Shown here in pieces: positions 1 through 15,683 of a stretch of 21,560 bases of DNA. Every line of letters begins with the position of its first letter. The first letter of the stretch is position 1. The notes beneath the pieces are model-generated. The model searched no databases, was not told where the DNA came from, and saw only the letters and a program-made list of their open reading frames with translations. The DNA is from a virus (taxonomy: Duplodnaviria; Heunggongvirae; Uroviricota; Caudoviricetes). A program made the position numbers and the translations under genes. Location: IMG/VR virus record IMGVR_UViG_2579779084_000006; one strand, written 5' to 3'.

Positions 1-144
1 GGAGACCTGGTTGCAGATTTTTTTATGGGTTCAGGTTCAACGGTAAAAGCGGCGATGGCACTGGGGCGTCGTGCGATTGGTGTTGAGCTGGAGACCGGAC
101 GTTTTGAACAGACAGTCAGGGAAGTTCAGGATTTAATCGTTTGA
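1..144 (+). CDS. DNA methyltransferase, C-terminal fragment (5' end lies outside the window)
   Basis: Frame-1 ORF open from base 1 to TGA at 142-144. Translation GDLVADFFMGSGSTVKAAMALGRRAIGVELE... carries an F-x-G-S-G-S/T AdoMet-binding motif near the C-terminus, as in beta-class N6-adenine/N4-cytosine DNA methyltransferases. Only 47 aa are visible, so the family call is tentative. Confidence 0.6.
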   Translation, partial: GDLVADFFMGSGSTVKAAMALGRRAIGVELETGRFEQTVREVQDLIV

Positions 145-193
145 AACGGATGAGATTGCAGAATTAATTACGCACCATTATTATTCTGCTCCC

Positions 194-269
194 GGCCCTT
201 TAGCTCAGTGGTGAGAGCGAGCGACTCATAATCGCCAGGTCGCTGGTTCAAATCCAGCAAGGGCCACCA
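194..269 (+). tRNA. tRNA with anticodon CAT, probably Ile2-type (lysidine, reads AUA) rather than elongator Met; CCA encoded
   Basis: Cloverleaf folded by hand: acceptor GGCCCTT/AAGGGCC, D-stem GCTC/GAGC, anticodon loop CTCATAA (anticodon CAT at 227-229), T-stem GCTGG/CCAGC with T-loop TTCAAAT, discriminator A, CCA at 267-269. The sequence closely resembles enterobacterial tRNA-Ile2 as I recall it; the isotype cannot be settled from the anticodon alone. Confidence 0.85.
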
Positions 270-276
270 TCACATA

Positions 277-353
277 CCGCCATTAGCTCATCAGGATAGA
301 GCGCCAGCCTTCGAAACTGGCTGTGTGGGGCTCGGGTCCCCGATGGCAATCCA
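277..353 (+). tRNA. tRNA-like gene, probably tRNA-Arg (anticodon TCG by canonical 7-nt loop), with non-canonical features
   Basis: D-stem GCTC/GAGC, anticodon stem CCAGC/ACTGG (one C-A mismatch), loop CTTCGAA (anticodon TCG at 311-313), T-stem TGGGG/CCCCG, encoded CCA at 351-353. The T-loop CTCGGGT departs from the TTCRANY consensus and acceptor pairs 1:72 and 2:71 are C-A mismatches. An alternative fold with a perfect 5-bp stem GCCAG/CTGGC gives a 9-nt loop. Confidence 0.55.
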
Positions 354-366
354 TTATCTGCATTAT

Positions 367-443
367 GCGTTGTTAGCTCAGCCGGACAGAGCAATTGCCT
401 TCTAAGCAATCGGTCACTGGTTCGAATCCAGTACAACGCGCCA
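367..443 (+). tRNA. tRNA-Arg (anticodon TCT, reads AGA); CCA encoded
   Basis: Acceptor GCGTTGT/ACAACGC, D-stem GCTC/GAGC, anticodon stem ATTGC/GCAAT with loop CTTCTAA (TCT at 401-403), T-stem ACTGG/CCAGT with T-loop TTCGAAT, discriminator G, CCA at 441-443. Confidence 0.85.
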
Positions 444-457
444 CGCTTATTTTTCCA

Positions 458-481
458 GGCTCGCTTCGGCGGGCCTTTTTC
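458..481 (+). terminator. Rho-independent terminator downstream of the tRNA cluster
   Basis: Stem GGCTCGC (458-464) / GCGGGCC (469-475) with one T-G wobble, TTCG tetraloop, followed by TTTTT (476-480). Confidence 0.5.
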
Positions 482-618
482 ATATCCGCGCCACGCCCGG
501 CGCACATCAAAAAACCACAGAGCCTTTCAGGTGTGAGCTTACGGGATGGTCAGTGTGACTTTCTCTGTGGGCTGGTCACCCCCGGGCGCAGGCTCACCCA
601 CTAAAAGGAAAAGTCACG

Positions 619-1044
619 ATGTTTGGTATTTTCAAAAAGAAAACCCGCAAGGCCATTACCGAAGTGAAGAAGATGGAGAACCGTGACGCAGTGGAGGCGA
701 CCGTCTGGGGCGCGTACTCCATTGCATACGCTGACGGCACCTGTGACGCGAAAGAAATCGCGGTATTGGAAAAAACCATTGCAGCACTTCCTGCCTTTGC
801 GCCGTTCTCCGGTGAGATTGCACAAATGAGTGCAAATATCCGCGCCCGTTATGAAGCGTCGCCGCGTTCTGCCAATGCCGAAGCTCTTCGTCAGCTGGCT
901 GATGTTGCCGGTACTGATGATGCAGTTAATGTGCTGTGCCTGTGTCTGGATATCGCTGACCAGGACGGTATCGCTCAGGAAGAAGAAGCGCAACTGAAGA
1001 AAATTGCGCAGGCGCTGCAGTTGCCGCTGGAGCAGTACCTGTGA
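619..1044 (+). CDS. TerB-family (tellurite-resistance TerB-like) protein, 141 aa
   Basis: ATG at 619 with AAGGA about 10 nt upstream. Translation shows the TerB-like pattern of two helical segments with conserved Asp-Gly and acidic residues (AYADGTCDAKEIAVLEK and LDIADQDGIAQEEEAQLKKIAQAL). Recognised from memory of TerB sequences, not from a search. Confidence 0.65.
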   Translation: MFGIFKKKTRKAITEVKKMENRDAVEATVWGAYSIAYADGTCDAKEIAVLEKTIAALPAFAPFSGEIAQMSANIRARYEASPRSANAEALRQLADVAGTDDAVNVLCLCLDIADQDGIAQEEEAQLKKIAQALQLPLEQYL

Positions 1045-1193
1045 AAAGTGCGCGCCTTGTGCTGGCTGTCATCCTGTTGTTTCTGGTAGTGGTGGTTGAT
1101 TTCACCGGACGACTGATATCGGTGCTGGCAGATGGTGTGCTGGTGGCGATGGCGCTGGTCGTGCTCCGGCCTTTACTGCGTAAATCTGAATAA
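1041..1193 (+). CDS. Small hydrophobic protein (50 aa), possible membrane partner of the upstream TerB-like gene
   Basis: GTG at 1041 overlaps the TerB stop (cTGTGAaa), GGAG 11 nt upstream. Translation VKSARLVLAVILLFLVVVVDFTGRLISVLADGVLVAMALVVLRPLLRKSE is almost entirely hydrophobic with a basic C-terminus. Absent from the supplied ORF track (short, GTG start); existence is uncertain. Confidence 0.3.
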   Translation: MKSARLVLAVILLFLVVVVDFTGRLISVLADGVLVAMALVVLRPLLRKSE

Positions 1194-1202
1194 CATCACA
1201 CA

Positions 1203-1240
1203 AAAGGCATCTGCGGATGCCTTTGACGGGGTGTTTTTTT
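1203..1240 (+). terminator. Hairpin plus T7 tract between the cargo genes and the lysis cassette; terminator-like or antitermination target
   Basis: Perfect 9-bp stem AAAGGCATC (1203-1211) / GATGCCTTT (1216-1224) with a 4-nt loop, then 9 nt, then TTTTTTT (1234-1240). A second weak hairpin (about 1243-1258) and a T-rich run follow before the AGGAGG RBS at 1271. Confidence 0.3.
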
Positions 1241-1280
1241 ACGGGTCGCTGGTGGCCCTTTTTTATTTTCAGGAGGAAGT

Positions 1281-1673
1281 ATGTCTGAACCCTTATCCGG
1301 TTCCGGCACGGCTGCTGCGCTGGGTGGCGCGACGGTATTCGGGCTGTTTACCGGAATGGATTTCGGGATTGTGTTTGGCGCGTTCGCCGGGGCGTTATTT
1401 GTGGCAACGATGCCACAGTCACTTTCAGTCTGGCGCGTGGTGGCACATTTTCTGGTGTCGTTTATTGTCGGCGTGCTGGGAGCGCGTGTGCTGTCAGCCT
1501 GGATTGCATCAAAAACAGGGTATGACGGTACATCAGCAGATGCGCTTTGCGCGGTGCTGGTCTCGGTGGTGTCGGTGAAGATTCTCTCGTTCATCCACCA
1601 GCAGGATATTGCATCGCTGGTGTCCGGTGTGTTCTCCCGCCTGCGGGGTGGAGGAGGCGGCAATGTTAAGTAA
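1281..1673 (+). CDS. Putative holin (multi-pass membrane protein, 130 aa)
   Basis: ATG at 1281 preceded by AGGAGG (1271-1276). Translation has three to four hydrophobic segments and a charged Gly-rich C-terminus (RLRGGGGGNVK). Sits directly upstream of the endolysin. Holin role inferred from topology and position only. Confidence 0.5.
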   Translation: MSEPLSGSGTAAALGGATVFGLFTGMDFGIVFGAFAGALFVATMPQSLSVWRVVAHFLVSFIVGVLGARVLSAWIASKTGYDGTSADALCAVLVSVVSVKILSFIHQQDIASLVSGVFSRLRGGGGGNVK

Positions 1674-1938
1674 CCTTCCCGGATTGCTGAATGTGGCGTT
1701 ATGCACGGTTATCGTGCTGACGCTCTTTTTTTATCGTCGCCGTGATTCCAGACATAAACCGCTGGTGTCATGGCTGGCCTGGCTGCTGATGCTGCTGTAT
1801 GCCTTTGCGCCCCTCAGCTATCTGTGTGGTCGCCCGTTAGCAACGGGCTGGCTGGAAGTGTTTTTTAACCTGCTGTTCTGCGTGCTGGTGATACGCGCAC
1901 GCGGGAACGTCACAAAAATCTTTCCATTGTTGAGGTGA
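1663..1938 (+). CDS. Second lysis-cassette membrane protein (91 aa), possible holin or antiholin partner
   Basis: ATG at 1663 preceded by GGAGGAGG (1650-1657); overlaps the end of the upstream gene by 11 nt. Translation MLSNLPGLLNVALCTVIVLTLFFYRRRDSRHKPLVSWLAWLLMLL... has about three TM segments. The track ORF from 1609 is the same frame with an unsupported upstream start. Confidence 0.5.
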   Translation: MLSNLPGLLNVALCTVIVLTLFFYRRRDSRHKPLVSWLAWLLMLLYAFAPLSYLCGRPLATGWLEVFFNLLFCVLVIRARGNVTKIFPLLR

Positions 1939-1940
1939 AT

Positions 1941-2318
1941 ATGCCGGGTAAATTCAGATTCAGCCGTCGCAGTGAAAAAAATCTGGAGGGTGTCAAACCA
2001 CAGCTGGTTGCTGTAGTTCGCCGTGCGCTGGAGCTGACGGAGGTTGATTTCGGTATTACGGAAGGCCTGCGCAGTAAGTATCGCCAGAAACAGCTGGTTG
2101 CGGAAGGGAAAAGCCAGACCATGAACAGCCGCCACCTGACCGGTGATGCGGTGGATGTTGTGGCCTACATCGGCAGCCAGGTGTCATGGGAGTGGCCTCT
2201 GTACGAGAAAATCGCACAGGCATTTAAGCAGGCTGCCGCAGAGCTGGGGATCGCTATCGAATGGGGCGGGGACTGGAAAACGCTGAAAGACGGACCTCAC
2301 TTTCAGCTGAAGCGATAA
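1941..2318 (+). CDS. Endolysin, peptidase M15-type (L-alanyl-D-glutamate peptidase family), 125 aa
   Basis: ATG at 1941 with GAGGTG RBS at 1932-1937 (the track start at 1935 is a GTG two codons upstream). Contains the metal-ligand motifs typical of M15/VanY-like phage endolysins: SRHLTGDAVD (His-x6-Asp) and WKTLKDGPHFQL (His). Confidence 0.8.
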   Translation: MPGKFRFSRRSEKNLEGVKPQLVAVVRRALELTEVDFGITEGLRSKYRQKQLVAEGKSQTMNSRHLTGDAVDVVAYIGSQVSWEWPLYEKIAQAFKQAAAELGIAIEWGGDWKTLKDGPHFQLKR

Positions 2319-2327
2319 GTAAAACAA

Positions 2328-2364
2328 AACCCCGGCTGGGGGAACAGTCCGGGGTTGCATTTTG
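2328..2364 (+). terminator. Terminator-like hairpin after the endolysin
   Basis: 8-bp perfect stem AACCCCGG (2328-2335) / CCGGGGTT (2349-2356) with a 13-nt loop, followed by GCATTTTG. The large loop makes it only moderately convincing. Confidence 0.4.
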
Positions 2365-2436
2365 ATAAATCAGACATGGAGATAATTCATGCAGGTAAAG
2401 GATAACAATAAAACCTTTCTGAGTATAGGGGGCAGT

Positions 2437-2541
2437 ATGACACCTAAAGCAGCAAATATTGCCGGAATTATTCTTGCATTATCGGCAATGATCGGGGCAA
2501 TTGGTTTTGCGGTTGCAGTGATAGCATATGTTTGTAGATAA
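2437..2541 (+). CDS. Tiny single-TM peptide (34 aa)
   Basis: ATG at 2437 with strong SD AGGGGG (2427-2432) at 4-nt spacing. Translation MTPKAANIAGIILALSAMIGAIGFAVAVIAYVCR is one transmembrane helix with a short basic N-terminus. Not in the ORF track because of length. Confidence 0.3.
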   Translation: MTPKAANIAGIILALSAMIGAIGFAVAVIAYVCR

Positions 2542-4331: not shown

Positions 4332-6058
4332 CACGAAAAAATTACGTGAACGTTAATGCCGCAAATCAGTATGCACGTGATGTGGTTCGCGGAAAAATTC
4401 AGGTTTGCCGTTATGTCGTTCTGGCCTGCCAGCGTCACCTTGATGACCTGGAAAATTCAGTTAAAAAAAACTATCCGTTTAAATTTGATAAAGATAAAGC
4501 TGAGCGGGTGGCGAAATTTATCCAGCTTTTGCCACACACCAAAGGGGAGTGGGCATTTAAGCGGATGCCCATTACGCTTGAACCCTGGCAGTTGTTCTGT
4601 ATCTGTGTTGTGTTTGGGTGGGTGAGAAAAAAGAGCGGTCTGCGTCGATTTCGCGAGGCTTACAACGAAATACCCCGTAAAAACGGGAAATCAGCAATGT
4701 CTGCTGGCGTTGGTCTGTATATGTTTGCCTGCGATGATGAATTTGGCGCTGAAGTGTATTCCGGGGCCACAACAGAGAAACAGGCGTGGGAAGTTTTTCG
4801 TCCAGCCAGACTGATGGCGCAACGCACGGAGCCATTGCGTGAAGCATTTGGTATTGAAGTACATGCTCAAAGCATGAGCCGTCCGGAGGACGGTGCCCGT
4901 TTTGAACCGTTGATTGGAGATCCCGGAGACGGCGCGTCGCCGAGTTGCGCTCTCATTGATGAATATCACGAGCATCAGACCGATGCACTTTACCAGACGA
5001 TGCAAACCGGGATGGGGGCGCGTCGTCAGCCGCTGATTTTTGGTATCACCACTGCGGGCTATAACATTGAAGGGCCATGCTACGACAAACGTCGTGAAGT
5101 GATCGAAATGCTTGAAGGGATTGTGCCCAATGATGAACTGTTCGGGATTATTTATACCATTGACGACGGGGATGACTGGACAGATCCGGCGGTATTGCGT
5201 AAAGCGAACCCCAATATGGGGATTTCTGTCTACAGTGATTACCTGTTATCTCAACAGCGCGCGGCAATTAACAACCCACGAAAAGTGGGCGTGTTCAAAA
5301 CGAAACATCTGAATATCTGGGTGGCAGCAAAAGACGCCTTCTTCAATCTTGTGAACTGGCAGAAATGTGAGGACAGGAGTCTGACGCTGGAGCGTTTTGA
5401 GGGGCATACCTGCATTCTGGCGTTTGACCTTGCGCGAAAGCTGGATTTGAACGCAATGGTACGGCTTTTTACCCGAGAGATTGACGGTAAAACGCATTAT
5501 TATTGTGTCGCACCCAAGTTTTTTGTTCCCTACGACACAATCTATAGCGCTGATGTGACAGACAGTCGCACAGCAGAACGTTATCAGAAGTGGGTTGAAG
5601 GGGGATTTATTACCGTTACCGATGGTGCGGAAATTGATTACCGGGAGATCCTTGAGTCTGCGAAAGAAGCAAATCGCTTAAACGCAGTGGAGGAGTCACC
5701 TATAGATCCCCACGGAGCCACAAACCTTTCTCACCACCTTGCTGATGAAAACTTAAACCCTATTACCATCATTCAGAACTACACCAATATGTCGGATCCC
5801 ATGAAGGAACTTGAGGCGGCTATCGAGGCCGGGCGTTTTCATCATGATGGTAATCCTGTGATGACATGGTGTGTCAGCAACGTGATTGGAAAGCACATTC
5901 CCGGCGACGATGATGTTGTTCGTCCGATCAAACAAGGTAACGAAAACAAAATCGATGGTGCTGTGGCGCTGATTATGGCGATTGGTCGTTGCATGCTATT
6001 TGAGAAAGAAGACACGCTGTCTGATCACATTGAGTCCTACGGGATCCGCTCGCTGTAA
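4328..6058 (+). CDS. Terminase large subunit, 576 aa
   Basis: Long ORF translationally coupled to the small subunit. Size and N-terminal region ([31 protein letters not shown]) match the HK97-like TerL family, with acidic nuclease-type motifs in the C-terminal half. Gene order TerS-TerL-portal. Confidence 0.93.
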
Positions 6059-6069
6059 CTGAGGTAATT

Positions 6070-6252
6070 ATGATCATGCTGATTCTCGCGCCTCTGGTGG
6101 GCGTGCTGGGTGCGATTTTGCTGGCGTATGGTGCCTGGCTGATTTATCCCCCGGCGGGGTTTGTTGTTGCCGGGGCGTTGTGCCTGTTCTGGTCGTGGCT
6201 GGTGGCGCGATATCTCGACCGTACACAGTCGTCTGTCGGCGGAGGTAAATAG
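6070..6252 (+). CDS. Small two-TM membrane protein, 60 aa
   Basis: ATG at 6070 with GAGGT RBS. Translation [49 protein letters not shown]... Its stop overlaps the portal GTG start (TAGTG at 6250-6254). Sits between terminase and portal. Confidence 0.4.
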
Positions 6253-7493
6253 TGTTCTTTTCGGGATTATTTCAAAGAAAAAGTAACGCACCGGTGACCA
6301 CGCCAGCAGAGCTGGCAGATGCTATCGGGCTGTCCTACGACACCTATACCGGAAAGCAGATCAGCAGCCAGCGGGCCATGCGACTGACGGCGGTTTTTTC
6401 CTGCGTCAGGGTGCTGGCAGAGTCGGTCGGGATGTTGCCCTGCAATCTGTATCACCTGAACGGCAGCCTGAAACAGAGAGCCACCGGCGAACGTCTGCAT
6501 AAGCTGATCTCCACGCATCCTAATGGCTATATGACGCCGCAGGAGTTCTGGGAGCTGGTGGTCACCTGTCTGTGTCTGCGGGGAAACTTTTACGCCTACA
6601 AAGTGAAAGCATTTGGCGAAGTGGCTGAACTGCTGCCCGTCGATCCCGGTTGTGTGGTACCGAAGCTTAACAGTAGCTGGGAGCCGGTCTATCAGGTCAC
6701 ATTCCCGGACGGCTCCACGGATGTGCTGACCCAGGAGGATATCTGGCATGTGCGCACGCTGACGCTGGACGGACTGGTGGGGCTGAATCCCGTCGCCTAT
6801 GCCCGCGAGGCAATATCGCTGGCGGCAGCGACCGAAGAGCACGGGGCCAGACTGTTCAGCAATGGTGCGGTGACGTCGGGTGTGTTGCGTACAGAGCAAA
6901 CGCTGTCAGATCAGGCTTACGAGCGCCTGAAGAAAGATTTTGAGGAGCGTCACACCGGGCTTGGCAATGCTCACCGCCCGATGATCCTTGAGATGGGGCT
7001 GGACTGGAAGTCGATGGCGCTGAACGCCGAGGACAGCCAGTTCCTGGAAACCCGCAAGTTTCAGCTTGAAGAAATCTGTCGTCTGTTCCGGGTGCCGTTG
7101 CACATGGTGCAGAACACCGATCGCGCCACCTTCAACAATATCGAAGAGCTGGGGCTGGGATTTATCAATTATTCACTGGTGCCGTATCTGACCCGCATCG
7201 AACAGCGGATCAACACCGGACTGGTACGAAAAAGTAAGCAGGGCGTTTATTACGCCAAATTTAACGCCGGGGCGTTACTGCGCGGAGATATGAAGTCCCG
7301 TTTTGAAGCCTACGCCACCGGGATCAACTGGGGAATTTACTCTCCCAATGACTGCCGTGACCTGGAAGATATGAATCCGCGTCCCGGTGGTGATGTCTAT
7401 CTCACACCGATGAACATGACCACGAAACCCTCCGATGGCAGTAAAGCCGGTAAGCAGAAGGATAACGCCAATGCAGACGAAACAACGTCTTGA
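6252..7493 (+). CDS. Portal protein (HK97-family-like), 413 aa
   Basis: GTG start at 6252 with GGAGG (6241-6245) at 6-nt spacing. Size and position (after TerL, before protease and capsid) fit the HK97-type portal. Confidence 0.9.
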   Translation: MFFSGLFQRKSNAPVTTPAELADAIGLSYDTYTGKQISSQRAMRLTAVFSCVRVLAESVGMLPCNLYHLNGSLKQRATGERLHKLISTHPNGYMTPQEFWELVVTCLCLRGNFYAYKVKAFGEVAELLPVDPGCVVPKLNSSWEPVYQVTFPDGSTDVLTQEDIWHVRTLTLDGLVGLNPVAYAREAISLAAATEEHGARLFSNGAVTSGVLRTEQTLSDQAYERLKKDFEERHTGLGNAHRPMILEMGLDWKSMALNAEDSQFLETRKFQLEEICRLFRVPLHMVQNTDRATFNNIEELGLGFINYSLVPYLTRIEQRINTGLVRKSKQGVYYAKFNAGALLRGDMKSRFEAYATGINWGIYSPNDCRDLEDMNPRPGGDVYLTPMNMTTKPSDGSKAGKQKDNANADETTS

Positions 7494-8121
7494 TGTACCG
7501 CTGAGTCTGAAATCTGTCAGTGACTCCGGTGAGTTTGAAGGGTATGGCTCCGTCTTTGGTGTAAAGGACAGCCACGATGATGTGGTGATGTCCGGGGCAT
7601 TTGCTGCTTCCCTGCGGGCGTGGAGTGACAGAAAAGCGTTACCTGCGCTGCTCTGGCAGCACCGCATGGATGAACCCATCGGTGTTTACACCGAAATGAA
7701 GGAAGACGATGTCGGGCTTTACGTCAGGGGACGGTTGCTTATTGATGATGATCCCCTCGCAAAACGCGCACATGCACACATGAAGGCCGGTTCGTTAACC
7801 GGCCTTTCTATTGGGTACGCCCTGAAAGACTGGGAATACGACCGGAGCAAAGAAGCCTTTCTGCTGAAAGAAATCGACCTCTGGGAAGTCAGCCTGGTGA
7901 CGTTCCCGTCTAACGACGAGGCGCGGATCAGCGACGTCAAGAACGCACTGGCCCGCGGGGAAATCCCCGAACAGAAAAAAATCGAAAGAGTCCTGCGTGA
8001 TGTCGGACTCTCCCGTACCCAGGCCAAAGCATTCATGGCCGGGGGCTATGGCGCACTGTCCCTGCGCGACGCTGAGGATGTGGGCTCTGCATTGAATGCA
8101 CTGAAAAATCTGAACTTCTAA
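7471..8121 (+). CDS. Prohead maturation protease (HK97 gp4-like), 216 aa
   Basis: Translation contains FEGYGSVFGVKDSHDDVVMSGAF, typical of HK97-family prohead proteases. The track starts at ATG 7435; I prefer the in-frame ATG at 7471 (MQTKQRL...), which gives a 23-nt overlap with the portal end. The start is uncertain. Confidence 0.85.
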   Translation: MQTKQRLDVPLSLKSVSDSGEFEGYGSVFGVKDSHDDVVMSGAFAASLRAWSDRKALPALLWQHRMDEPIGVYTEMKEDDVGLYVRGRLLIDDDPLAKRAHAHMKAGSLTGLSIGYALKDWEYDRSKEAFLLKEIDLWEVSLVTFPSNDEARISDVKNALARGEIPEQKKIERVLRDVGLSRTQAKAFMAGGYGALSLRDAEDVGSALNALKNLNF

Positions 8122-8135
8122 TCAGGAGAAATACG

Positions 8136-9341
8136 ATGGCGGTTGATATTAAAGATGTCGAACAGGTCGCGCAGGAGCTGCAGCAGAAGTTTGACGACTT
8201 CAAAGCAAAGAACGACAAGCGCGTTGAGGCGATTGAGCAGGAAAAAGGCAAACTTGCCGGGCAGGTGGAAACCCTGAACGGAAAACTCAGCGAGCTGGAA
8301 AACCTCAAAAGCGACCTTGAAAAAGAGCTGCTTGAGCTGAAACGTCCGGCAGGTGGTGCGCAAAATAAACTGGCCACCGAGCACAAAGAGGCGTTTGTGG
8401 GCTTTCTGCGTAAAGGCCGTGAAGACGGTCTGCGCGATCTGGAGCGCAAGGCATTGCAGGTGGGCACCGATGAAGACGGCGGCTATGCCGTGCCGGAAGC
8501 ACTGGATCGCAACATTCTCACCCTGCTGAAAGATGAAGTGGTGATGCGCCAGGAAGCCACGGTGATCACCGTTGGTGGTTCCGACTACAAAAAACTGGTG
8601 AATCTGGGCGGCACGGCTTCCGGATGGGTTGGCGAGACTGACGCGCGCTCCCAGACTGCCACCTCAAAACTGGGCCTGATTGAACCTTTCATGGGGGAAA
8701 TCTACGGTAACCCGCAGGCTACCCAGAAAATGCTGGATGATGCCTTTTTCAACGTGGAAGCCTGGATCAACAGCGAGCTGGCAACCGAATTTGCCGAACA
8801 GGAAGAAATTGCCTTTACCACCGGCGATGGCACCAAGAAGCCAAAAGGGTTCCTGGCGTATGAATCCACGGATGAAACCGATAAGGTTCGTGCGTTCGGT
8901 AAACTTCAACATATTGTATCCGGTGAAGCGACGACGGTGACCGCAGACGCCATTATCAAACTGATTTACACGCTGCGTAAGGCACACCGCACCGGCGCGA
9001 AGTTCATGATGAACAACAACAGCCTGTTTGCCATCCGTCTGCTGAAAGACAGCGAGGGTAACTATCTGTGGCGTCCGGGGCTGGAGCTGGGGCAGCCGTC
9101 CTCTCTGGCGGGTTACGGTATCGCTGAAAACGAACAGATGCCGGATATCGCCGCTGATGCGAAAGCCATTGCATTTGGTAACTTCAAACGGGGTTACACC
9201 ATCGTTGACCGTATCGGCACCCGCATTCTGCGTGACCCGTACACCAATAAACCGTTTGTCGGTTTTTATACCACCAAGCGCACCGGCGGGATGCTGGTCG
9301 ATTCGCAGGCCATCAAACTGCTGAAGATTGCAGCGGCGTAA
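8136..9341 (+). CDS. Major capsid protein (HK97-family-like) with N-terminal coiled-coil scaffolding (delta) domain, 401 aa
   Basis: ATG at 8136 with AGGAG (8124-8128). The first 70 or so residues are a charged heptad-rich helix (VEQVAQELQQKFDDFKAKNDKRVEAIEQEKGKLAGQVETLNGKLSELENLKSDLEKELLELK). No separate scaffold gene between protease and capsid. Confidence 0.93.
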   Translation: MAVDIKDVEQVAQELQQKFDDFKAKNDKRVEAIEQEKGKLAGQVETLNGKLSELENLKSDLEKELLELKRPAGGAQNKLATEHKEAFVGFLRKGREDGLRDLERKALQVGTDEDGGYAVPEALDRNILTLLKDEVVMRQEATVITVGGSDYKKLVNLGGTASGWVGETDARSQTATSKLGLIEPFMGEIYGNPQATQKMLDDAFFNVEAWINSELATEFAEQEEIAFTTGDGTKKPKGFLAYESTDETDKVRAFGKLQHIVSGEATTVTADAIIKLIYTLRKAHRTGAKFMMNNNSLFAIRLLKDSEGNYLWRPGLELGQPSSLAGYGIAENEQMPDIAADAKAIAFGNFKRGYTIVDRIGTRILRDPYTNKPFVGFYTTKRTGGMLVDSQAIKLLKIAAA

Positions 9342-9348
9342 TCATTCA

Positions 9349-9368
9349 GGGGCGCGGAACCGCGCCCC
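9349..9368 (+). terminator. GC-rich hairpin immediately after the capsid gene
   Basis: GGGGCGC (9349-9355) / GCGCCCC (9362-9368) around a 6-nt loop. Not followed by a clean U-tract, so more likely an attenuator or RNA-stability element than a full terminator. Confidence 0.35.
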
Positions 9369-9390
9369 CTGTTCTGACGGGTGAAGAATC

Positions 9391-9591
9391 ATGATCCTGA
9401 AACAAGATCTGAAATGGTCACCGGACGGTATGCGTGTTGAGGTCATTCGGGCCGGTGAGTATGACGACGGGGCGCTTCCTGCCCGGGTGCAGGAGATTGC
9501 ACTTCAGGCCGGGTTAGCAGAGCGCGGAACCAGTGCAAAAAGCAGTAAAGCGGCAAAAGAGAAAAAAGCCACGGCCAGTAAAGAGGGCTGA
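9391..9591 (+). CDS. Hypothetical small protein, 66 aa, with Lys/Ala/Ser-rich C-terminal tail
   Basis: ATG at 9391; the stop at 9589-9591 is 2 nt before the next gene's ATG at 9594, so it is tightly packed in the operon. C-terminus is SAKSSKAAKEKKATASKEG. Confidence 0.45.
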   Translation: MILKQDLKWSPDGMRVEVIRAGEYDDGALPARVQEIALQAGLAERGTSAKSSKAAKEKKATASKEG

Positions 9592-9593
9592 GT

Positions 9594-9917
9594 ATGCTTC
9601 TGACAATGGAAGAGATTAAAGCCCAACTCCGGCTGGATGAGGATTTCGATGCTGATAACCGCCATCTGCAACTGCTGGCCTGTGCGGCGCAAAAGCGGAC
9701 GGAAACGTATCTGAACCGGAAGCTCTATGCTCCGGATGAAACCATTCCGGACAGCGATCCGGACGGGCTGCACCTGCCGGATGATATTCGTCTGGGGATG
9801 CTGATGCTTATCAGCCATTTTTACGAAAATCGCTCGTCGGTTACAGACGTTGAGAAAATGGAGTTGCCAATGAGCTTTAACTGGCTTGTCGGCCCGTACA
9901 GGTATTTCCCGCAATGA
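9594..9917 (+). CDS. Head-tail connector protein (gp6-like DNA-packaging/connector family), 107 aa
   Basis: N-terminus MLLTMEEIKAQLRLDEDFDADNRHLQLLACAAQKRTETYLNRKL matches the pattern of gp6-like head-tail connector proteins. AAGAGGG RBS. First gene after the capsid module. Confidence 0.75.
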   Translation: MLLTMEEIKAQLRLDEDFDADNRHLQLLACAAQKRTETYLNRKLYAPDETIPDSDPDGLHLPDDIRLGMLMLISHFYENRSSVTDVEKMELPMSFNWLVGPYRYFPQ

Positions 9918-10324
9918 AAATTCGTCAGGCGCAGACCAGCGCAACCTACATTCTGCCGGACCCCGGTGAACTGAATAAACGCGTCCTGATCCGCCAGCGG
10001 GTGGATATGCCCGCGGATAACTTTGGCGTGGAGCCTCAATACCCGGTTACGTTCCGGACATGGGCGAAGGTTATCCAGACCAGTGCCACCACCTGGCAGG
10101 AAACCGCGCAGACCGGGGACGCCATCACCCATTACATCACCATTCGTTACCGCCGGGGGATCACCGCTGATTATGAGGTGGTCTGCGGTGACAGTGTGTA
10201 CCGGGTGAAACGTCAGCGCGATCTGAACGGAGCGCGGCGCTTTCTGCTGCTGGAGTGTACGGAGCTGGGCGAATTTACGCAGAGTCACGGAGGCAACAAT
10301 GGCGACTTCCTTTTTGCACGTTGA
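9914..10324 (+). CDS. Head closure / head-tail joining protein, 136 aa
   Basis: ATGA start-stop overlap with the connector gene. Size and position fit the head-tail adaptor family. Assignment by synteny. Confidence 0.6.
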   Translation: MKIRQAQTSATYILPDPGELNKRVLIRQRVDMPADNFGVEPQYPVTFRTWAKVIQTSATTWQETAQTGDAITHYITIRYRRGITADYEVVCGDSVYRVKRQRDLNGARRFLLLECTELGEFTQSHGGNNGDFLFAR

Positions 10325-10805
10325 TGTTCAGCAGCCCGCGGAGATGCGCTTTAACCGCGCCCGTGTCCGGCGGGCGTTTGTCACGATTGGTCAGCGTCAT
10401 ATGCGTGATGCCCGACGGCTGGTGATGCGCCGTGCGCGGTCGGCACCGGGTGAAAACCCCGGTTATCAGACCGGACGCCTGGCTCGTTCGATTGGTTACA
10501 TGGTACCCAGAGCCAGTAAAAAGCGAGCCGGTTTTATGACACGCATTGCCCCTAACCAGCGCAACGGGAAGGGGAACCGGATGATCTCTGGTGACTTCTA
10601 TCCGGCGTTTCTGTTTTTTGGTGTCCGGGGAGGAGCAAAACGTCGTCGTAGTCATCATCGTGGTGCATCTGGTGGCAGCGGCTGGCGGCTGGCTCCACGT
10701 AATAACTTTATGGTGGAAACGCTTGAAAAGAACCGCAGCTGGACACGCTATTTTCTGGCGCGGGAATTACGTAAATCACTGAAGCCGGAGCGACGACGCA
10801 GATGA
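10299..10805 (+). CDS. Virion morphogenesis / neck protein (HK97 gp10-like), 168 aa
   Basis: ATG at 10299 with GGAGG (10286-10290), overlapping the upstream gene by 26 nt. Very basic product with an Arg-rich C-terminus. Functional call by position. Confidence 0.5.
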   Translation: MATSFLHVDVQQPAEMRFNRARVRRAFVTIGQRHMRDARRLVMRRARSAPGENPGYQTGRLARSIGYMVPRASKKRAGFMTRIAPNQRNGKGNRMISGDFYPAFLFFGVRGGAKRRRSHHRGASGGSGWRLAPRNNFMVETLEKNRSWTRYFLARELRKSLKPERRRR

Positions 10806-11362
10806 AACTGACGCCTGTTATTGCTGCGCTGCGTGCCCGCTGCCCGTATTTTGAAAACCGGGTGGCAGGCGCGGCCCAGTTCAAAAATCTGCCGGAGGTC
10901 GGAAAGCTGAGACTCCCGGCGGCGTATGTGGTACCGGGGGATGACTCTCCGGGAGAAAACAAAAGCCAGACCGACTACTGGCAGGAGCTGAAAGAGGGCT
11001 TCTCCGTGGTTGTCATACTGAGTAACGGGCGTGATGAGCGCGGTCAGTTTGCCTCGTATGATGTGGTGGACGATGTCCGGCAGATGCTCTTTAAGGCCCT
11101 GCTGGGCTGGAACCCGGAAGCGTGCGGTAACCCGATTACCTATGACGGCGGCACGCTGCTGGATCTGAATCGTCATGAGCTGATTTATCAGTTCGATTTT
11201 TCGGTCATCAGTGAGCTGACCGAAGACGATACCCGCCAGCAGGATGACCTGAACAGTCTGGATGAACTGCAAACGCTGGCGATTGATGTTGATTATCTCG
11301 AGCCCGGTAACGGACCTGACGGCGATATCGAACATCACACCGAAATAACCCTTCCTTCCTGA
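10802..11362 (+). CDS. Tail-proximal structural protein (Mu gp37-like), 186 aa
   Basis: ATGA overlap with the upstream gene. Occupies the slot before the sheath gene that Mu-like tail modules fill with gp37-type proteins. Family call from synteny. Confidence 0.45.
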   Translation: MKLTPVIAALRARCPYFENRVAGAAQFKNLPEVGKLRLPAAYVVPGDDSPGENKSQTDYWQELKEGFSVVVILSNGRDERGQFASYDVVDDVRQMLFKALLGWNPEACGNPITYDGGTLLDLNRHELIYQFDFSVISELTEDDTRQQDDLNSLDELQTLAIDVDYLEPGNGPDGDIEHHTEITLPS

Positions 11363-11370
11363 GGATCCTC

Positions 11371-11541
11371 ATGTTTGTCAAACCTGTTAAAGGGCGGTCA
11401 GTTCCTGATCCTGCCCGCGGCGACCTTTTGCCCGCCGAAGGGCGAAATGTTGATGAGAACAACTACTGGCTGCGCCGTGAAGCAGCGGGTGATATCCGGC
11501 GCGTGAATAAAAAGGTGAATACCGATGACGATAAGCTTTAA
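11371..11541 (+). CDS. Small protein (56 aa) upstream of the sheath gene (Mu gp38-like position)
   Basis: ATG at 11371 with GAGGA (11361-11365). Translation MFVKPVKGRSVPDPARGDLLPAEGRNVDENNYWLRREAAGDIRRVNKKVNTDDDKL. Its 3' end overlaps the sheath start (11525) in another frame. Not in the ORF track (under 60 aa). Confidence 0.4.
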   Translation: MFVKPVKGRSVPDPARGDLLPAEGRNVDENNYWLRREAAGDIRRVNKKVNTDDDKL

Positions 11542-13021
11542 CACCATTCCGTCGAATACGCTGGTTCCGTTGTTTTATGCGGAAATGGATAACCAGGCGG
11601 CGAATACTGCACAGGACAGCGGAGCATCGCTGCTGATTGGTCATGCCAATAACGGTGCAGAGATTGTTGCCAACAGTCTGGTGCTGATGCCGTCGGCAGA
11701 CTATGCACGCCAGATTTGTGGTGTGGGAAGTCAGCTGGCGCGTATGGTCGAGGCTTATCGCCAGACCGACCCGTTTGGTGGGCTGTATGTGATTGCCGTT
11801 CCTGAATCCACGGGCGCGGCGGCAACGGTTACGCTGACGGTGACCGGGGCGGCAACCGAAACCGGCACGGTGAATGTGTATGTGGGACGTACCCGCGTGC
11901 AGGCACCGGTGACCAATGGCGATAACGTCACGATGATTGCCAGCAGTATCCAGGATGCCATCAATGCCGTTCCGACTCTGCCGTTTACAGCTTCATCTTC
12001 GGCTGGTGTTGTCACGCTGACCGCGCGTCATAAGGGGCTTTGCGGGAATGAAATTCCTGTCAGCCTCAATTACTACGGCTTCGGTGGGGGCGAAGTGCTG
12101 CCAGCGGGCGTACAGATTGCCGTGGCGACGGGGACCGCCGGAACGGGCGCTCCGGTTCTCACCGGCGCGGTGGCTGCAATGGCGGATGAGCCGTTTGATT
12201 ATATCGGTCTGCCGTTCAACGACACGGCCTCCGTTAACACGCTGGTGACCGAGATGAACGATACCAGCGGTCGCTGGAGCTATGCGCGTCAGCTGTATGG
12301 TCATGTGTATACGGCAAAGACCGGCACACTGTCAGAACTGGTGAACGCAGGTGACCAGTTTAACCAGCAGCACATCACCCTGGCGGGGTACGAAAAAGAA
12401 ACCCAGACGCCTGCCGACGAGCTGGCAGCCAGCCGTACCGCCCGCGCGGCAGTGTTTATCCGCAACGATCCGGCACGTCCCACGCAGACCGGTGAGCTGG
12501 TGGGTATGCTGCCTGCGCCGAAGGGGAAACGGTTCACGATGACCGAGCAGCAGACCCTGCTGTCTCATGGCGTGGCAACGGCGTATGTCGAAAGCGGGGT
12601 GCTGCGCATTCAGCGTGATGTCACCACGTACAGGAAAAACGCTTACGGGGTTGCGGATAACAGCTACCTCGACAGCGAGACGCTGCATACCAGCGCGTAT
12701 GTACTGCGCAAACTGAAATCCGTCATTACCAGTAAGTACGGGCGTCACAAGCTTGCCAGTGACGGTACCCGCTTTGGTCCCGGTCAGGCGATTGTCACCC
12801 CGGCGGTGATCAAAGGGGAACTGCTGGCAACCTACCGTCAGCTCGAGCGTGCGGGGATCGTGGAAAACTACGAACTGTTTAAGCAGTACCTGGTTGTGGA
12901 GCGTGATGCCAGCGATCCGAACCGCCTGAACACGCTGTTCCCGCCTGACTATGTTAACCAGTTGCGTGTCTTTGCCGTGGTTAACCAGTTCCGTCTTCAG
13001 TATTCAGAGGAGTCTGCATAA
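11525..13021 (+). CDS. Contractile tail sheath protein (Mu L-like), 498 aa
   Basis: About 500-aa ORF immediately before a 118-aa tube gene, a frameshifted chaperone pair and the tape measure, which is the canonical myovirus order. Size matches Mu-type sheath proteins. Confidence 0.82.
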   Translation: MTISFNTIPSNTLVPLFYAEMDNQAANTAQDSGASLLIGHANNGAEIVANSLVLMPSADYARQICGVGSQLARMVEAYRQTDPFGGLYVIAVPESTGAAATVTLTVTGAATETGTVNVYVGRTRVQAPVTNGDNVTMIASSIQDAINAVPTLPFTASSSAGVVTLTARHKGLCGNEIPVSLNYYGFGGGEVLPAGVQIAVATGTAGTGAPVLTGAVAAMADEPFDYIGLPFNDTASVNTLVTEMNDTSGRWSYARQLYGHVYTAKTGTLSELVNAGDQFNQQHITLAGYEKETQTPADELAASRTARAAVFIRNDPARPTQTGELVGMLPAPKGKRFTMTEQQTLLSHGVATAYVESGVLRIQRDVTTYRKNAYGVADNSYLDSETLHTSAYVLRKLKSVITSKYGRHKLASDGTRFGPGQAIVTPAVIKGELLATYRQLERAGIVENYELFKQYLVVERDASDPNRLNTLFPPDYVNQLRVFAVVNQFRLQYSEESA

Positions 13022-13377
13022 TGGCCCGTATCGGGGGAACCTGTTATTTCAAAATTGACGGTCAGCAGCTATCGCTGACCGGCGGCATTGAGGTGCCCAT
13101 GAACAGGACGGTCAATGATGACATCATCGGCCTGGACGGTTCAGTGGACCGCAAGGAAACTCACCGTGCGCCTTATGTCAAAGGGACCTTCAAGGTGCCG
13201 AAGAATTTTCCGGTGAGCAAAATCACCTCGTCTGATGAGATGACCATCACTGCCGAGTTGGCGAACGGTCAGGTCTATGTACTGTCGTCTGCCTGGCTGC
13301 ACGGCGAAGCGAACCATAATGCCGAAGAAGGCACGGTTGATCTTGAGTTCCACGGTGAAGAAGGGGATTACCAGTAA
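13021..13377 (+). CDS. Tail tube protein (Mu M-like), 118 aa
   Basis: TAATG overlap with the sheath stop. Size and position typical of the tube protein. Confidence 0.8.
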   Translation: MARIGGTCYFKIDGQQLSLTGGIEVPMNRTVNDDIIGLDGSVDRKETHRAPYVKGTFKVPKNFPVSKITSSDEMTITAELANGQVYVLSSAWLHGEANHNAEEGTVDLEFHGEEGDYQ

Positions 13378-13646
13378 TGAAAGAGCTTGAGTTAAAGAAA
13401 CCGATTACTGCTCATGGCGAGACACTCTCCGTACTGGAGTTTGATGAGCCCACCGGGAAGGATGTCCGCGAGCTGGGGTATCCCTACCAGATGAATCAGG
13501 ATGAGTCCGTCAGACTTCTGGCGCATGTGGTGTCGAAATACATTGTGCGGCTGGCGAAAGTGCCGCAAAGCTCTGTCGACCAGATGTCTCCGGCAGACCT
13601 GAATGCAGCGGCGTGGCTTGTGGCTGGTTTTTTCCTCCAGGCCTGA
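13377..13646 (+). CDS. Tail assembly chaperone, short form, 89 aa
   Basis: TAATG overlap with the tube gene. Lies immediately before the tape measure. Contains a slippery heptamer near its 3' end (see next feature). Confidence 0.7.
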   Translation: MKELELKKPITAHGETLSVLEFDEPTGKDVRELGYPYQMNQDESVRLLAHVVSKYIVRLAKVPQSSVDQMSPADLNAAAWLVAGFFLQA

Positions 13647-13795
13647 CGGCTGAATACCTCACTGATCGCTTCTTTGACTGCGCCAGCTACTGGCGCATTA
13701 ATCCCTTCGAATTGCTGAATATGTCGATCAGTGAAATTCCCTTGCTGGTCAGTCAGGCAAACAGGATAGAGCAGGAGAAACGCACACATGGCTGA
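13377..13795 (+). CDS. Tail assembly chaperone, long form by programmed -1 frameshift at T_TTT_TTC (13628-13634)
   Basis: The zero-frame codons GGT TTT TTC place the heptamer TTTTTTC at 13628-13634. The -1 frame is open from there to TGA at 13793-13795 (FFPPGLTAEYLTDRFF...EQEKRTHG), ending inside the start of the tape measure gene. Same arrangement as lambda G/GT and Mu gp41/gp42. Confidence 0.55.
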
Positions 13796-15623
13796 ATTTG
13801 AGCTTAAGGCGTTGATCACCGGTGTCGACAGGCTTTCTCCCGCGCTGTCGAAAATGCAAAAGAAAATCCGGGGATTTAAACGCCAGGCGGAAGAAGCGTC
13901 ACAGGGTGGGCTGGCGCTTGGTGGCGGACTGGCAGCGGGTCTGACGCTTTCCCTGAAATCTTATGCCGATCAGGAAAACGCCGCCACCGGGCTGAAAGTC
14001 GCCATGATGGATGCGAACGGCGAGATTGGAAAGCGCTTTCAGGACATCAATAAACTGGCTATTGGCCTGGGTAACCAGCTACCCGGTACAACGGCTGATT
14101 TCCAGAACATGATGCAGATGCTGGTGCGTCAGGGGATCCCGGCAGAAAACATTCTTGGCGGTGTGGGTAAAGCGACAGCTTATCTTGCGGTACAACTGAA
14201 AAAAACACCGGAAGCGGCTGCCGAGTTTGCCGCAAAGATGCAGGATGCTACCGGAACGGCGTCAGAAGACATGATGGGGCTGTTCGACACTATCCAGAAG
14301 GCGTTTTATCTGGGCGTTGACGATACCAACATGTTGTCCTTCTTCACTAAAACCAGCTCTGTTCTGAAGATGGTGAACAAGGACGGTCTTCAGGCTGCAC
14401 AGAGCCTTGCCCCCATCAGCGTCATGATGGATCAGATGGGGATGAACGGGGAGTCGGCAGGTAACGCCCTGCGAAAAGTTATCCAGTCCGGATTAAGCGT
14501 TAAGAAAATCAGGGACGTCAATAAAGTCATGGCCCGCCAGAAACTCGGAGTGCAGCTCGATTTTACTGACGGCAAAGGGAGTTTTGGCGGTCTTGATAAC
14601 ATGTTCAGGCAACTGGCAAAGCTGCGAAAACTGACCGACGTTAAGCGAACAGGTGTACTTAAGGCAATATTTGGTGATGATGCCGAAACCCTTCAGGTGG
14701 TCAATGCCCTGATCGATAAAGGAAAGGATGGTTACGATCAGATCCAGCAGAAGATGAATAAACAGGCCAGCCTGAATAAACGTGTTCAGGCACAGCTTGG
14801 TACGCTGTCCAACCTGTGGGAGGCAATGACAGGGACCGCAACTAACGGCCTTGCGGCTATTGGCGGCGCATTTTCTGGTGACGCCAAAAATATCACGCAA
14901 TGGCTGGGGGAGTTGGGGGAAAAATTCACGAAGTTTGCGGATCAAAATCCCCGGGTTATTCGCGGCGTCGTCGGGCTTGCTGCCGGTCTTGCGATTCTGA
15001 AACTGGGATTGATGGGCGTGGGCAGTGCCATCAGTATCGTCAGCAGGATCATGTCGATGACGCCGATTGGCATGATTGCGACGGCGATTGCTCTGGCTGC
15101 GGGATTAATTATCACTAACTGGGATGTTGTCGGACCTTATTTTAAGAAGCTCTGGGAAACCATTGGTCCTTATTTTGAGGCTGGCTGGGAACTTCTGAAG
15201 AAAGTTTTTGCCTGGTCGCCGCTGGGAATGGTGATCAATAACTGGGGACCGGTTGTTAAGTGGTTTCAGGATATGTGGGACAAGCTGAAGCCCATTATTG
15301 AGTGGTTTACCGACAGTTCCGGTGACACGGTCGATGCCATTAACTCTGCGCAGTGGGGCGTGGGTGCTTATGATGCTTATGGGACGGGAATACCGGCGCG
15401 GGGATACACACCTTATCCGGCGGTAGATCCGGCTCAGTCAAACAACGCCTCCGGTGCCACAGGCCCGAATCCCTTCATGATTAACAAAGCTTCTGCGCCA
15501 AAAGTTGATGGTGAGATCAAGGTCTCTTTTGTGAACTCGCCTCCGGGTATGCGGGTTATGGAAACGCGATCCAGCGGTTTTGATGTCAGCCATGATGTTG
15601 GTTATACGCGCTTTTGCAGGTAA
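13788..15623 (+). CDS. Tail tape measure protein, 611 aa
   Basis: Long ORF after the chaperone pair. Predicted alpha-helical N-terminal half, internal hydrophobic segment (GLAAGLAILKLGLMGVGSAISIV...IATAIALAAGLII) and Trp-rich repeats, typical of tape measure proteins. Confidence 0.9.
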   Translation: MAEFELKALITGVDRLSPALSKMQKKIRGFKRQAEEASQGGLALGGGLAAGLTLSLKSYADQENAATGLKVAMMDANGEIGKRFQDINKLAIGLGNQLPGTTADFQNMMQMLVRQGIPAENILGGVGKATAYLAVQLKKTPEAAAEFAAKMQDATGTASEDMMGLFDTIQKAFYLGVDDTNMLSFFTKTSSVLKMVNKDGLQAAQSLAPISVMMDQMGMNGESAGNALRKVIQSGLSVKKIRDVNKVMARQKLGVQLDFTDGKGSFGGLDNMFRQLAKLRKLTDVKRTGVLKAIFGDDAETLQVVNALIDKGKDGYDQIQQKMNKQASLNKRVQAQLGTLSNLWEAMTGTATNGLAAIGGAFSGDAKNITQWLGELGEKFTKFADQNPRVIRGVVGLAAGLAILKLGLMGVGSAISIVSRIMSMTPIGMIATAIALAAGLIITNWDVVGPYFKKLWETIGPYFEAGWELLKKVFAWSPLGMVINNWGPVVKWFQDMWDKLKPIIEWFTDSSGDTVDAINSAQWGVGAYDAYGTGIPARGYTPYPAVDPAQSNNASGATGPNPFMINKASAPKVDGEIKVSFVNSPPGMRVMETRSSGFDVSHDVGYTRFCR

Positions 15624-15646
15624 TGAAAAATTAATCTGTTAATGAG

Positions 15647-15668: not shown

Positions 15669-15683
15669 ATGTACGGAGTTTAT

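Follow-up and report, generated by a model that had tools for sequence, protein, structure and literature searches.

What does a TerB-family gene do together with a tiny overlapping open reading frame (ORF) in front of the lysis genes of a tailed phage, and when are the two expressed? This question is raised by positions 619-1240 of a 21,560-nt stretch of viral DNA (Caudoviricetes, IMG/VR record IMGVR_UViG_2579779084_000006), the whole of which is referred to as the window. A previous interpretation made from the letters of the window (the sequence-only reading) had described the two genes as a cargo cassette with a moron layout and as a possible prophage-encoded exclusion or defence module. 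All features that it listed are present and every coordinate was right, but it had overlooked a structured RNA in the 131 nt before the ATG of the TerB-family gene and the identity of the two genes with tciA and tciB of phage P1. From comparisons with related phages we conclude that window 488-1193 is a tciA-tciB cargo cassette, which occupies a slot with exchangeable contents, bounded by the ileZ-argN-argO tRNA module and the holin gene, and which starts with a conserved leader RNA. Since the gene pair was already named in phage P1 and is annotated in RefSeq, the proteins are not new; they form an ordinary pair, and the interest of the locus rests on the RNA rather than on the proteins.

The leader RNA upstream of tciA

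The leader comprises 131 nt (488-618) between a terminator and the tciA ATG. Its conservation exceeds that of the coding sequence, and it is common to two TciA clades with a protein identity of only 43%. The comparative analysis identifies it as a conserved, covarying RNA, in which the loop of a first hairpin (HP1) pairs with a bulge (pseudoknot 1, PK1), a 5' flank pairs with an apical loop (pseudoknot 2, PK2), and helix P1 pairs CCUUU with the Shine-Dalgarno (SD) sequence AAAGG. Its elements are as follows.

488-492/499-503, plus strand: stem of HP1, 100% paired in alignment A7; the loop ACGCCC (493-498) is the 5' strand of PK1
directly after HP1, plus strand: A-rich linker
515-522, plus strand: 5' strand of PK2, CCACAGAG, pairing with 563-570 in eight Watson-Crick pairs, as PK2 or as an alternative helix
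523-527 (anti-SD CCUUU) and 529-530 (AG), plus strand: 5' strand of helix P1 (RNAalifold, pair counts, cmsearch alignment)
531-538, plus strand: 5' strand of helix P2, GUGUGAGC, pairing with 592-599
543-554 with 570-581 (543..581), plus strand: arm P3, 8 of 11 pairs changed on both sides across classes
563-570, plus strand: 3' strand of PK2, CUCUGUGG, in the apical region of P3
584-588, plus strand: 3' strand of PK1, GGGCG, in the 3'-side bulge between P3 and P2
592-599, plus strand: 3' strand of P2, GCUCACCC
601-602 (CU) and 604-608 (AAAGG, the SD), plus strand: 3' strand of P1
619, plus strand: AUG of tciA

In a covariance model (CM) alignment (A7) of 38 leaders belonging to two classes, 94.4% of the cells pair compared to 41-45% in slid controls, and 18 of 31 pairs show changes on both sides compared to 8.6 ± 1.4 in shuffles, none of 500 of which reached the observed value. 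Because alignment A7 puts the pseudoknot strands of the two classes in different registers, both pseudoknots were scored with our own script, based on cognate and non-cognate partners and on shuffles. PK1 covaries in at least seven types (CGCUC:GAGCG, CGCCC:GGGCG, UCGCAC:GUGCGA, UCUCAC:GUGAGA, UCGUAC:GUACGA, UGCCC:GGGCA, UCGCAU:AUGCGA); the complementarity extends over 5-6 nt between cognate strands in every parsed class compared to 1-4 nt between non-cognate ones, and the cognate runs sum up to 49, whereas shuffled partners yield 25.0 ± 2.3 (maximum 35). For PK2, the compensated variants are CCACAGAG:CUCUGUGG, CCAUGGAG:CUCCAUGG, CCUGCAGA:UCUGCAGG, CCACAA:UUGUGG, GAAAGU:ACUUUC, GAGAG:CUCUC and CACAGAA:UUCUGUG, with summed cognate runs of 57 compared to 37.6 ± 2.8 in shuffles. 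The minimum free energy (MFE) folds of six dissimilar members show the same architecture with a paired SD, and the excess of G.U cells (114) over A.C cells (25) indicates that the sense strand is the structured strand. Taken together, the leader combines covariation-supported secondary and tertiary structure with an SD held in a helix, as expected of a structured cis-regulatory RNA. This structure was revealed by comparative analysis only: the window leader folded alone is not significant (z = -0.85), and RNAalifold on six sequences missed both pseudoknots. A MAFFT alignment of both classes (A5), in which HP1 and the apical region were misaligned, was abandoned.

A different explanation of the conservation would be that the leader lacks an RNA function and represents a DNA-level homologous linker for cassette exchange, or simply recent common ancestry. 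Mosaic breakpoints located at or in the element, with the left joint (window 492) inside HP1, would fit such a linker, as would the long invariant stretches of the leader and the HP1-like hairpin plus CUUCAG..AAAAGGAA remnant that Stx2 phages keep upstream of stxA. However, compensatory changes in five helices, two of them long-range, the sense-strand excess of G.U over A.C, and an SD that always lies in one helix argue against it, and we regard this explanation as very improbable.

The leader is not restricted to tciA. In a few phages it precedes other genes, namely those of a secreted SBP-like protein (L134) and of a signal-peptide ORF (L139). The latter ORF (MKKRFLSAVTVAV...; L139 2683-3123, minus strand as fetched) comprises 146 codons, which overlap the holin gene in a different frame; probably its real product is a short peptide, either secreted or a lipoprotein, unless the ORF was called wrongly. 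A profile search revealed a second, diverged class of leaders with the same architecture elsewhere in the same phages, usually between the lysis genes and the terminase, in front of genes for KilA-N, antirepressor, HNH, glycosyltransferase and tail-tip-domain proteins. With a CM built from class 1 only, class-2 copies score 36-56 bits; the window contains one leader copy (488-621, 135 bits), and phiP27, the Stx2k phage and P1 contain none. Class-2 copies occur in 234 of 5426 complete Escherichia coli genomes and in more than 120 viral contigs, and at least 40 different N-termini were found downstream of the leader. A prophage of DH10B/NEB10-beta, which we take to be phi80, carries two copies between lysis genes and terminase (L316 1407-1537 and 3001-3114), one upstream of a Rha-family gene and the other upstream of a 243-aa hypothetical gene. 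A cassette with leader that is 94% identical to that of the window was also seen in vB_Apl-pPE4 (L002 645-846), which was deposited as an Actinobacillus phage; this sequence encodes enterobacterial-type isrK and C4 antisense RNAs and resembles an E. coli-type lambdoid phage.

Neither window 482-618 nor five class-2 copies matched Rfam 15 at E ≤ 1, and no description of the leader was found in the literature by leader sequence strings or key words. The leader therefore looks like a new RNA family, of which the kind, an SD-sequestering cis-regulatory leader, is known, as opposed to its architecture and its association with phage cargo. Several other assignments were considered and rejected. A weak Rfam match to STnc100 at 338-483 (18.6 bits vs a gathering score of 47, E 0.38) spans tRNA-Arg(TCT) and the terminator and is regarded as noise from these two elements. 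According to a 2026 preprint, STnc100 is related to the prophage small RNA (sRNA) PasD, and a TerB gene is a conserved neighbour of PasA/PasC; the leader is probably not a Pas sRNA, since the preprint locates PasA/C and PasD elsewhere and gives a separate terminator to each of them. A put-like antiterminator was discarded because phiP27 lacks the leader, yet its lysis module is unchanged, and a promoter element because the leader is GC-rich and contains no hexamers.

The tciA-tciB cassette and its slot

The window starts with the 3' end of a DNA methylase gene, followed by the features below.

194-269, 277-353 and 367-443, plus strand: tRNA cluster, ileZ-like (CAT), argN-like (TCG) and argO-like (TCT) (ARAGORN, Rfam tRNA)
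457-476, run to 481, plus strand: terminator-like hairpin AGGCUCGC-UUCG-GCGGGCCU with U run (terminator scan)
619-1044, plus strand: tciA, 141 aa (Pfam TerB, PHROG 632, AlphaFold2 (AF2) model)
1041-1193, plus strand: tciB, 50-aa membrane protein with two hydrophobic helices, DUF3927 (Pfam, PHROG 1470)
1203-1224, T tract to 1240, plus strand: first hairpin after tciB
1243-1258, T run to 1264, plus strand: second hairpin after tciB, a terminator
1281-1673 (holin, Phage_holin_8), 1663-1938 (holin, Phage_holin_3_7) and 1941-2318 (M15 endopeptidase/endolysin), plus strand: lysis cassette (Pfam, PHROGs)

The assignment of TciA to the TerB family, which had been proposed from the sequence, held in a profile search: the protein matches Pfam TerB (PF05099) in two stretches with 32.2 bits (gathering cut-off 24.4, E 1.4e-7) and PHROG 632 'tellurite resistance' with 5e-64. 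Among the matches listed, nearly all TciA homologues carry PF05099 and all are restricted to Enterobacterales. The protein is predicted to be cytoplasmic; in the AF2 model (predicted local distance difference test score 85.5), a six-helix bundle comes after residues 1-20, which are basic and disordered. The lone meaningful PDB match in a fold search was 2h5n (PG1108; probability 1.00, E 8e-3, template modelling score 0.53-0.60), presumably a TerB-family structure; the nuclear magnetic resonance structure of Klebsiella TerB was absent from the top structural matches, a PDB sequence-profile search gave no match for TciA, and an NCBIfam scan returned nothing useful. TciA contains two acidic D-G-x4-E motifs (residues 39-46 and 116-122). 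Homologues of TerB are also present in virulent N4-like and jumbo phages.

The small ORF, the existence of which had been doubted, proved to be real: we conclude that tciB is a gene beyond chance and, judged from its arrangement, translationally coupled to tciA. Its GTG start overlaps the tciA stop codon (GTGA), and its product matches Pfam DUF3927 (51.4 bits, cut-off 25) and PHROG 1470 'TciB-like' (5e-22). Across the fetched loci, 245 of 254 tciA genes are followed by an overlapping ORF of 50-54 aa with a GTGA or TAATG/TGATG junction, and the core DFT...S.LADG, placed between the two hydrophobic helices, is invariant. Among 108 unique sequences, differences fall mostly on the third codon position (52138/26677/100633 for positions 1/2/3), and single-base codon changes are synonymous in 63198 cases vs 16037 non-synonymous ones. 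One 196-aa protein (P0060, from one Logan contig) joins a P1-type TciA to TciB in a single ORF (Pfam TerB and DUF3927); we rejected it as a natural fusion, because the two frames seem to have been joined by a 1-nt indel, seen in this contig alone, which probably arose during sequencing or assembly.

Sequence comparison identifies the pair as homologues of tciA and tciB of phage P1, with 86% protein identity of TciA to P1 TciA and 80% nucleotide identity of tciA. In E. coli, RefSeq names the products 'tellurite resistance TerB family protein' and 'DUF3927 family protein'. It is nevertheless extremely improbable that the cassette truly confers resistance to tellurite or colicins, as its names in the databases imply. 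The name was inherited from TerB of the ter operon and repeated by PHROG and RefSeq, and the gene names in P1 were assigned 'by homology' only; the match to Pfam TerB is modest (32 bits), and none of the ter-operon partners terC, terD/E or terZ/A adjoins tciA, the neighbours of which are tRNA genes, tciB and holin genes in the window and likewise in the related loci inspected. The cassette was found in 388 of the 5426 complete E. coli genomes, where it occupies 315 places on chromosomes and 171 on plasmids. Many of its closest matches are enterotoxigenic E. coli (ETEC) strains, among them B7A and ATCC 43886 with about 99% identity.

The slot itself had been likened to the position at which lambdoid phages carry Stx and other cargo, and this view was borne out. 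The tRNA cluster constitutes a left-hand conserved module common to Stx phages: the DNA methylase-tRNA module is about 88-89% identical to that of Stx2 phages, with a match that invariably breaks off at window 492. The lysis cassette (1281..2318) forms the right-hand conserved module. In between, the terminator at 457-481 is the usual 5' neighbour of the leader, with its pairing kept by compensatory changes in other phages, whereas the hairpins at 1203..1264 travel with the holin module and are kept in phiP27 (from 1099), SerU-LTIIb (from 1190) and the Stx2k phage (from 1239). The second hairpin is a better terminator than the first one and is located directly before the ribosome-binding site of the holin gene. 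Downstream of the endolysin gene we noted an ORF for a 50-aa hydrophobic peptide (2389-2541) and an 88-aa ORF with a lipobox-like LLVGC (2596-2862), which may represent spanin-type lysis components; a Pfam scan, which of these two covered ORF 2389-2541 only, gave no match for it. The morphogenesis region (4349-19737) shows 94.8% identity to the Shigella phages SfII, SfI and SfIV. The phiP27-like tRNA-lysis region and the SfII-like morphogenesis genes identify the host of the cassette, by sequence comparison, as a mosaic prophage, with phiP27-like late and lysis genes.

What replaces tciAB in this slot is illustrated by phiP27, which aligns with window 1-492 and 1099-2312, and in which stx2eA/B take the place of 493-1098; the phage still carries the last 95 nt of tciB. 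A hypothetical gene of phiP27 (L27; L001 3324-3521, minus strand) overlaps this remnant on the opposite strand and is probably not a real gene. Similarly, the Stx2k phage aligns with 177-492 and 1239-2317, with stx2k and other genes in between, so that 493-1238 is replaced. Upstream of stxA of this phage (L003, about 460-550), the terminator and an HP1-like hairpin (GCGCC-GGGUCU-GGUGC) are kept, followed by ..CUUCAG-CC-AAAAGGAAC..AUG, which looks like a leader from which the entire P2-P3 stem-loop was deleted.

We extended the comparison to 80 viral contigs encoding the window holin at ≥93% identity. About 45 of these 80 contain tciAB, in line with the expectation that the cassette is variably present; in nine the slot is emptied and a degenerate leader runs straight into the terminator before the holin gene (L239), and in another nine tciA is 5'-truncated (L238). 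Other occupants are IS1 (L271), a pertussis-like AB5 toxin (L285; Pertussis_S1 5e-15) and subtilase cytotoxin (L292; Peptidase_S8 4e-25), the operon of which is preceded by a degenerate leader and a 12-codon stub of clade-2 tciA. JLK-2012 and PPyecE_EH1910 have the order Q-(tRNAs)-tciA-tciB-nanS-p-holin, in a slot that we assume to be the stx position of 933W-type phages, and CharmingMan and Klebsiella phages have the order Q-...-tciAB-holin. From the tciB remnant in phiP27 and the tciA remnant in the SubAB phage we conclude that AB5 toxin operons displaced tciAB more than once, and that tciAB is a frequent and probably older occupant of the slot. In the literature searched, tciAB was not found as the default tenant of an AB5-toxin slot with stubs beside stx2e or subAB. 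Such displacement with identifiable stubs provides a concrete picture of how Stx2e- and SubAB-converting phages could have originated.

Expression and proposed role of the cassette

The moron layout ascribed to the cassette stands insofar as it is flanked by terminators (457-481 and 1243-1264) and variably present, but not with regard to a promoter of its own. A consensus scan of window 1-2500 revealed no sigma-70-like promoter, and therefore the cassette does not qualify as a moron of the classical, self-transcribed type. By eye, one plausible sigma-70 promoter that the consensus scan did not flag can be recognised before the first tRNA gene at 194 (TTGCAG-17 nt-TATTAT, 156-184), and none in the leader; transcripts from this candidate would end at the terminator 457-481. 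The cassette of lambdoid phages is located everywhere within the Q/late transcription unit, behind a terminator and the SD-pairing leader, and in P1 the tci genes are part of the C1-repressed ban operon, far from the lysis genes. Both settings suggest that the genes are expressed once the prophage has been induced and not while it is repressed.

These data bear directly on the proposal that tciAB is a self-transcribed moron, expressed in the repressed prophage and conferring superinfection exclusion or anti-phage defence. TerB domains do occur in the validated defence systems Bunzi and Shango (10.1101/2022.05.11.491447) and Dionysus (10.1101/2025.09.30.679545), where they are proposed to act as a membrane-surveillance module (10.1101/2022.05.11.491447; 10.1101/2025.09.30.679545), and a terminator-flanked, variably present cassette in a slot that elsewhere holds lysogenic-conversion genes would suit such a function. 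However, no promoter-like site was found, the terminator and the SD-pairing leader lie directly upstream, the P1 genes are C1-repressed, homologues occur in virulent phages, and no PADLOC model matches either protein, so that we consider a role in the prophage quite unlikely. Since TerB is a proposed membrane-surveillance module with homologues in virulent phages, we favour a role in the infected or induced cell, and rank defence in the prophage state below envelope protection or exclusion in the induced cell. Of the sequence-only reading we thus retain the slot, the assignment to TerB and the small ORF with its coupling, whereas a promoter of the cassette's own and defence in the prophage state are not supported.

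The explanation that we consider best, with somewhat more confidence than doubt for the whole of it, is that of a slot cassette which is transcribed late only, gated at translation by its leader, and encodes a membrane module protecting the envelope. According to this scenario, tciAB would be transcribed only within antiterminated (terminator-resistant) late transcription after induction, and the C1-repressed ban operon of P1 would likewise confine the tci genes to the period after derepression. The leader would set, damp or switch tciA translation by occluding the SD, and translation of tciB would follow that of tciA through coupling. TciA might then be recruited to the inner membrane via its basic N-terminus and/or TciB, and the two would form an inner-membrane accessory module that is not essential for phage growth. 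The most likely job of this module would be to guard or survey the envelope until the induced cell lyses, against superinfecting phages or pore-forming colicins. For the leader, translational gating of late-operon cargo is the most likely role.

Several observations weigh against this explanation. The CM alignment was fitted to the model and leans towards its own structure, the pseudoknot registers were picked sequence by sequence with our own script, and P1 and P2 are largely invariant in a young and recombining family, so that part of the conservation may reflect ancestry. Furthermore, the pseudoknot-free MFE of the window copy (-47.0 kcal/mol) belongs to another fold, compared to -42.4 kcal/mol for the constrained consensus fold; this alternative contains PK2 as a nested helix and leaves the AAA of the SD unpaired, and SD occlusion is therefore not guaranteed in the window variant. 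The nested consensus value excludes PK1 (about -9.7 kcal/mol) and PK2 (about -12.2 kcal/mol), and the two folds may compete. The window copy also has U532 where the majority has G, which results in a U.C mismatch in P2. The promoter scan was a simple consensus scan that a weak or non-sigma-70 promoter could escape. Finally, PADLOC-DB v2, a library outside which Dionysus (2025) lies, contained no family at E ≤ 1 for TciA or TciB, and the TerB homologues in virulent N4-like and jumbo phages fit a role in the lytic cycle, but no specific one.

The competing folds raise the question of whether the leader might be a switch responding to a ligand, temperature or a factor, instead of a constitutive damper or insulator. 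A switch is compatible with its compact double-pseudoknotted fold, in which unpaired positions of bulge and loop are conserved and the closing helix contains the SD, and also with the two energetically close folds of the E. coli-type copy, in one of which PK2 is nested and most of the SD is unpaired. The same leader, however, precedes at least 40 unrelated genes (TerB, KilA-N, antirepressor, HNH, glycosyltransferase, tail-tip-domain), which argues against a metabolite tied to gene function, and the gene content suggests no ligand; a switch is therefore a possibility that we consider unlikely but worth keeping in view.

With regard to the proteins, TciAB could alternatively be an aid to the lytic cycle, either as an anti-defence decoy for TerB-based sensors of the host or as a regulator that acts on holin timing or on the energisation of the membrane. 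Lambdoid phages always have the cassette just before the lysis genes, TerB homologues occur in virulent phages, and the sequence of TciB is that of a small membrane peptide with two helices, comparable to antiholins or other peptides that modulate holins. However, the tci genes of P1 are far from its lysis genes, the cassette is freely lost or replaced while the lysis cassette stays unchanged, and knock-down of tciA, tciB or tciC in P1 by CRISPR interference left plating unaffected, the genes being dispensable for plaques (PMC10695390). We give such an aid only a slim chance and retain envelope protection in the induced cell as the preferred function. The operon was also lost in about half of one subgroup of P1-like phage-plasmids (PMC9603915).

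The broader significance would lie in the leader, a portable element with five covarying helices that is common to cargo genes in the toxin slot and in the slot behind the lysis genes. If it controls translation, it would explain how accessory genes are kept silent or dosed inside a massively transcribed late operon and would offer a new handle on the expression of prophage cargo. We tentatively propose, with doubt slightly outweighing confidence, that it is the first representative of a hitherto undescribed class of regulatory RNAs with two pseudoknots, which gate the translation of accessory and virulence-slot cargo in the late operons of lambdoid and phiP27-like phages, including phi80, possibly as a signal-responsive switch or self-processing RNA, and that leader and tciAB remnants mark the sites of Stx2e and SubAB capture. 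As copies are present in phi80/DH10B and common ETEC strains, this proposal is directly testable.

Comparison with known systems

The leader resembles SD-sequestering leaders such as riboswitch platforms, RNA thermometers, IS10 fold-back inhibition and lambda cIII in that an anti-SD pairs with the SD in a conserved helix of the 5' untranslated region, that alternative folds are possible, and that translational control or insulation would likely take place inside a longer read-through transcript. Unlike these, its double-pseudoknot architecture matches no Rfam 15 family and its gene content implies no ligand, and its stability (-40 to -58 kcal/mol) and complexity exceed those of known RNA thermometers. 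The Pistol ribozyme and other small pseudoknotted phage RNAs, which are frequent in phage genomes, have a 5' hairpin loop that forms a pseudoknot of about 6 bp with the internal loop of the next hairpin. In contrast to Pistol, the pseudoknot partner in the leader lies on the 3' side and the leader is about twice as long; the Pistol model of Rfam did not match the leader, and no cleavage-site signature was identified in it.

In its Pfam TerB domain, its two D-G-x4-E motifs, its predicted helical bundle and its presumed membrane-proximal location, TciA resembles both TerB of terZABCDEF and the TerB-like domain of DjlA. It differs from both in its low sequence similarity (32 bits to Pfam) and in standing alone with a 50-aa membrane peptide, in the absence of TerC, TerD, TerZ and a J domain.

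The closest counterpart of the pair is tciA-tciB-tciC of P1 (annotation of Lobocka et al. 2004; NC_005856), which has the same DUF3927 peptide with the same overlapping start and likewise lies among phage tRNA genes, downstream of a DNA methyltransferase gene. Both cassettes appear to be non-essential and variably present (PMC10695390; PMC9603915). P1 differs by the presence of tciC, where the window has no ORF between tciB and the hairpins at 1203-1264, and by a C1-controlled ban promoter without a structured leader, instead of a late-operon slot before the lysis genes.

The Stx, SubAB, Plt and LT-II cassettes of lambdoid and phiP27-like phages occupy the identical slot, behind tRNA genes and terminator and before the holin gene, and rely, as tciAB would, on late-operon read-through transcription. 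They differ from the window in that their cargo is a toxin and in that the full leader is replaced by HP1-like or degenerate leader remnants and tci stubs.

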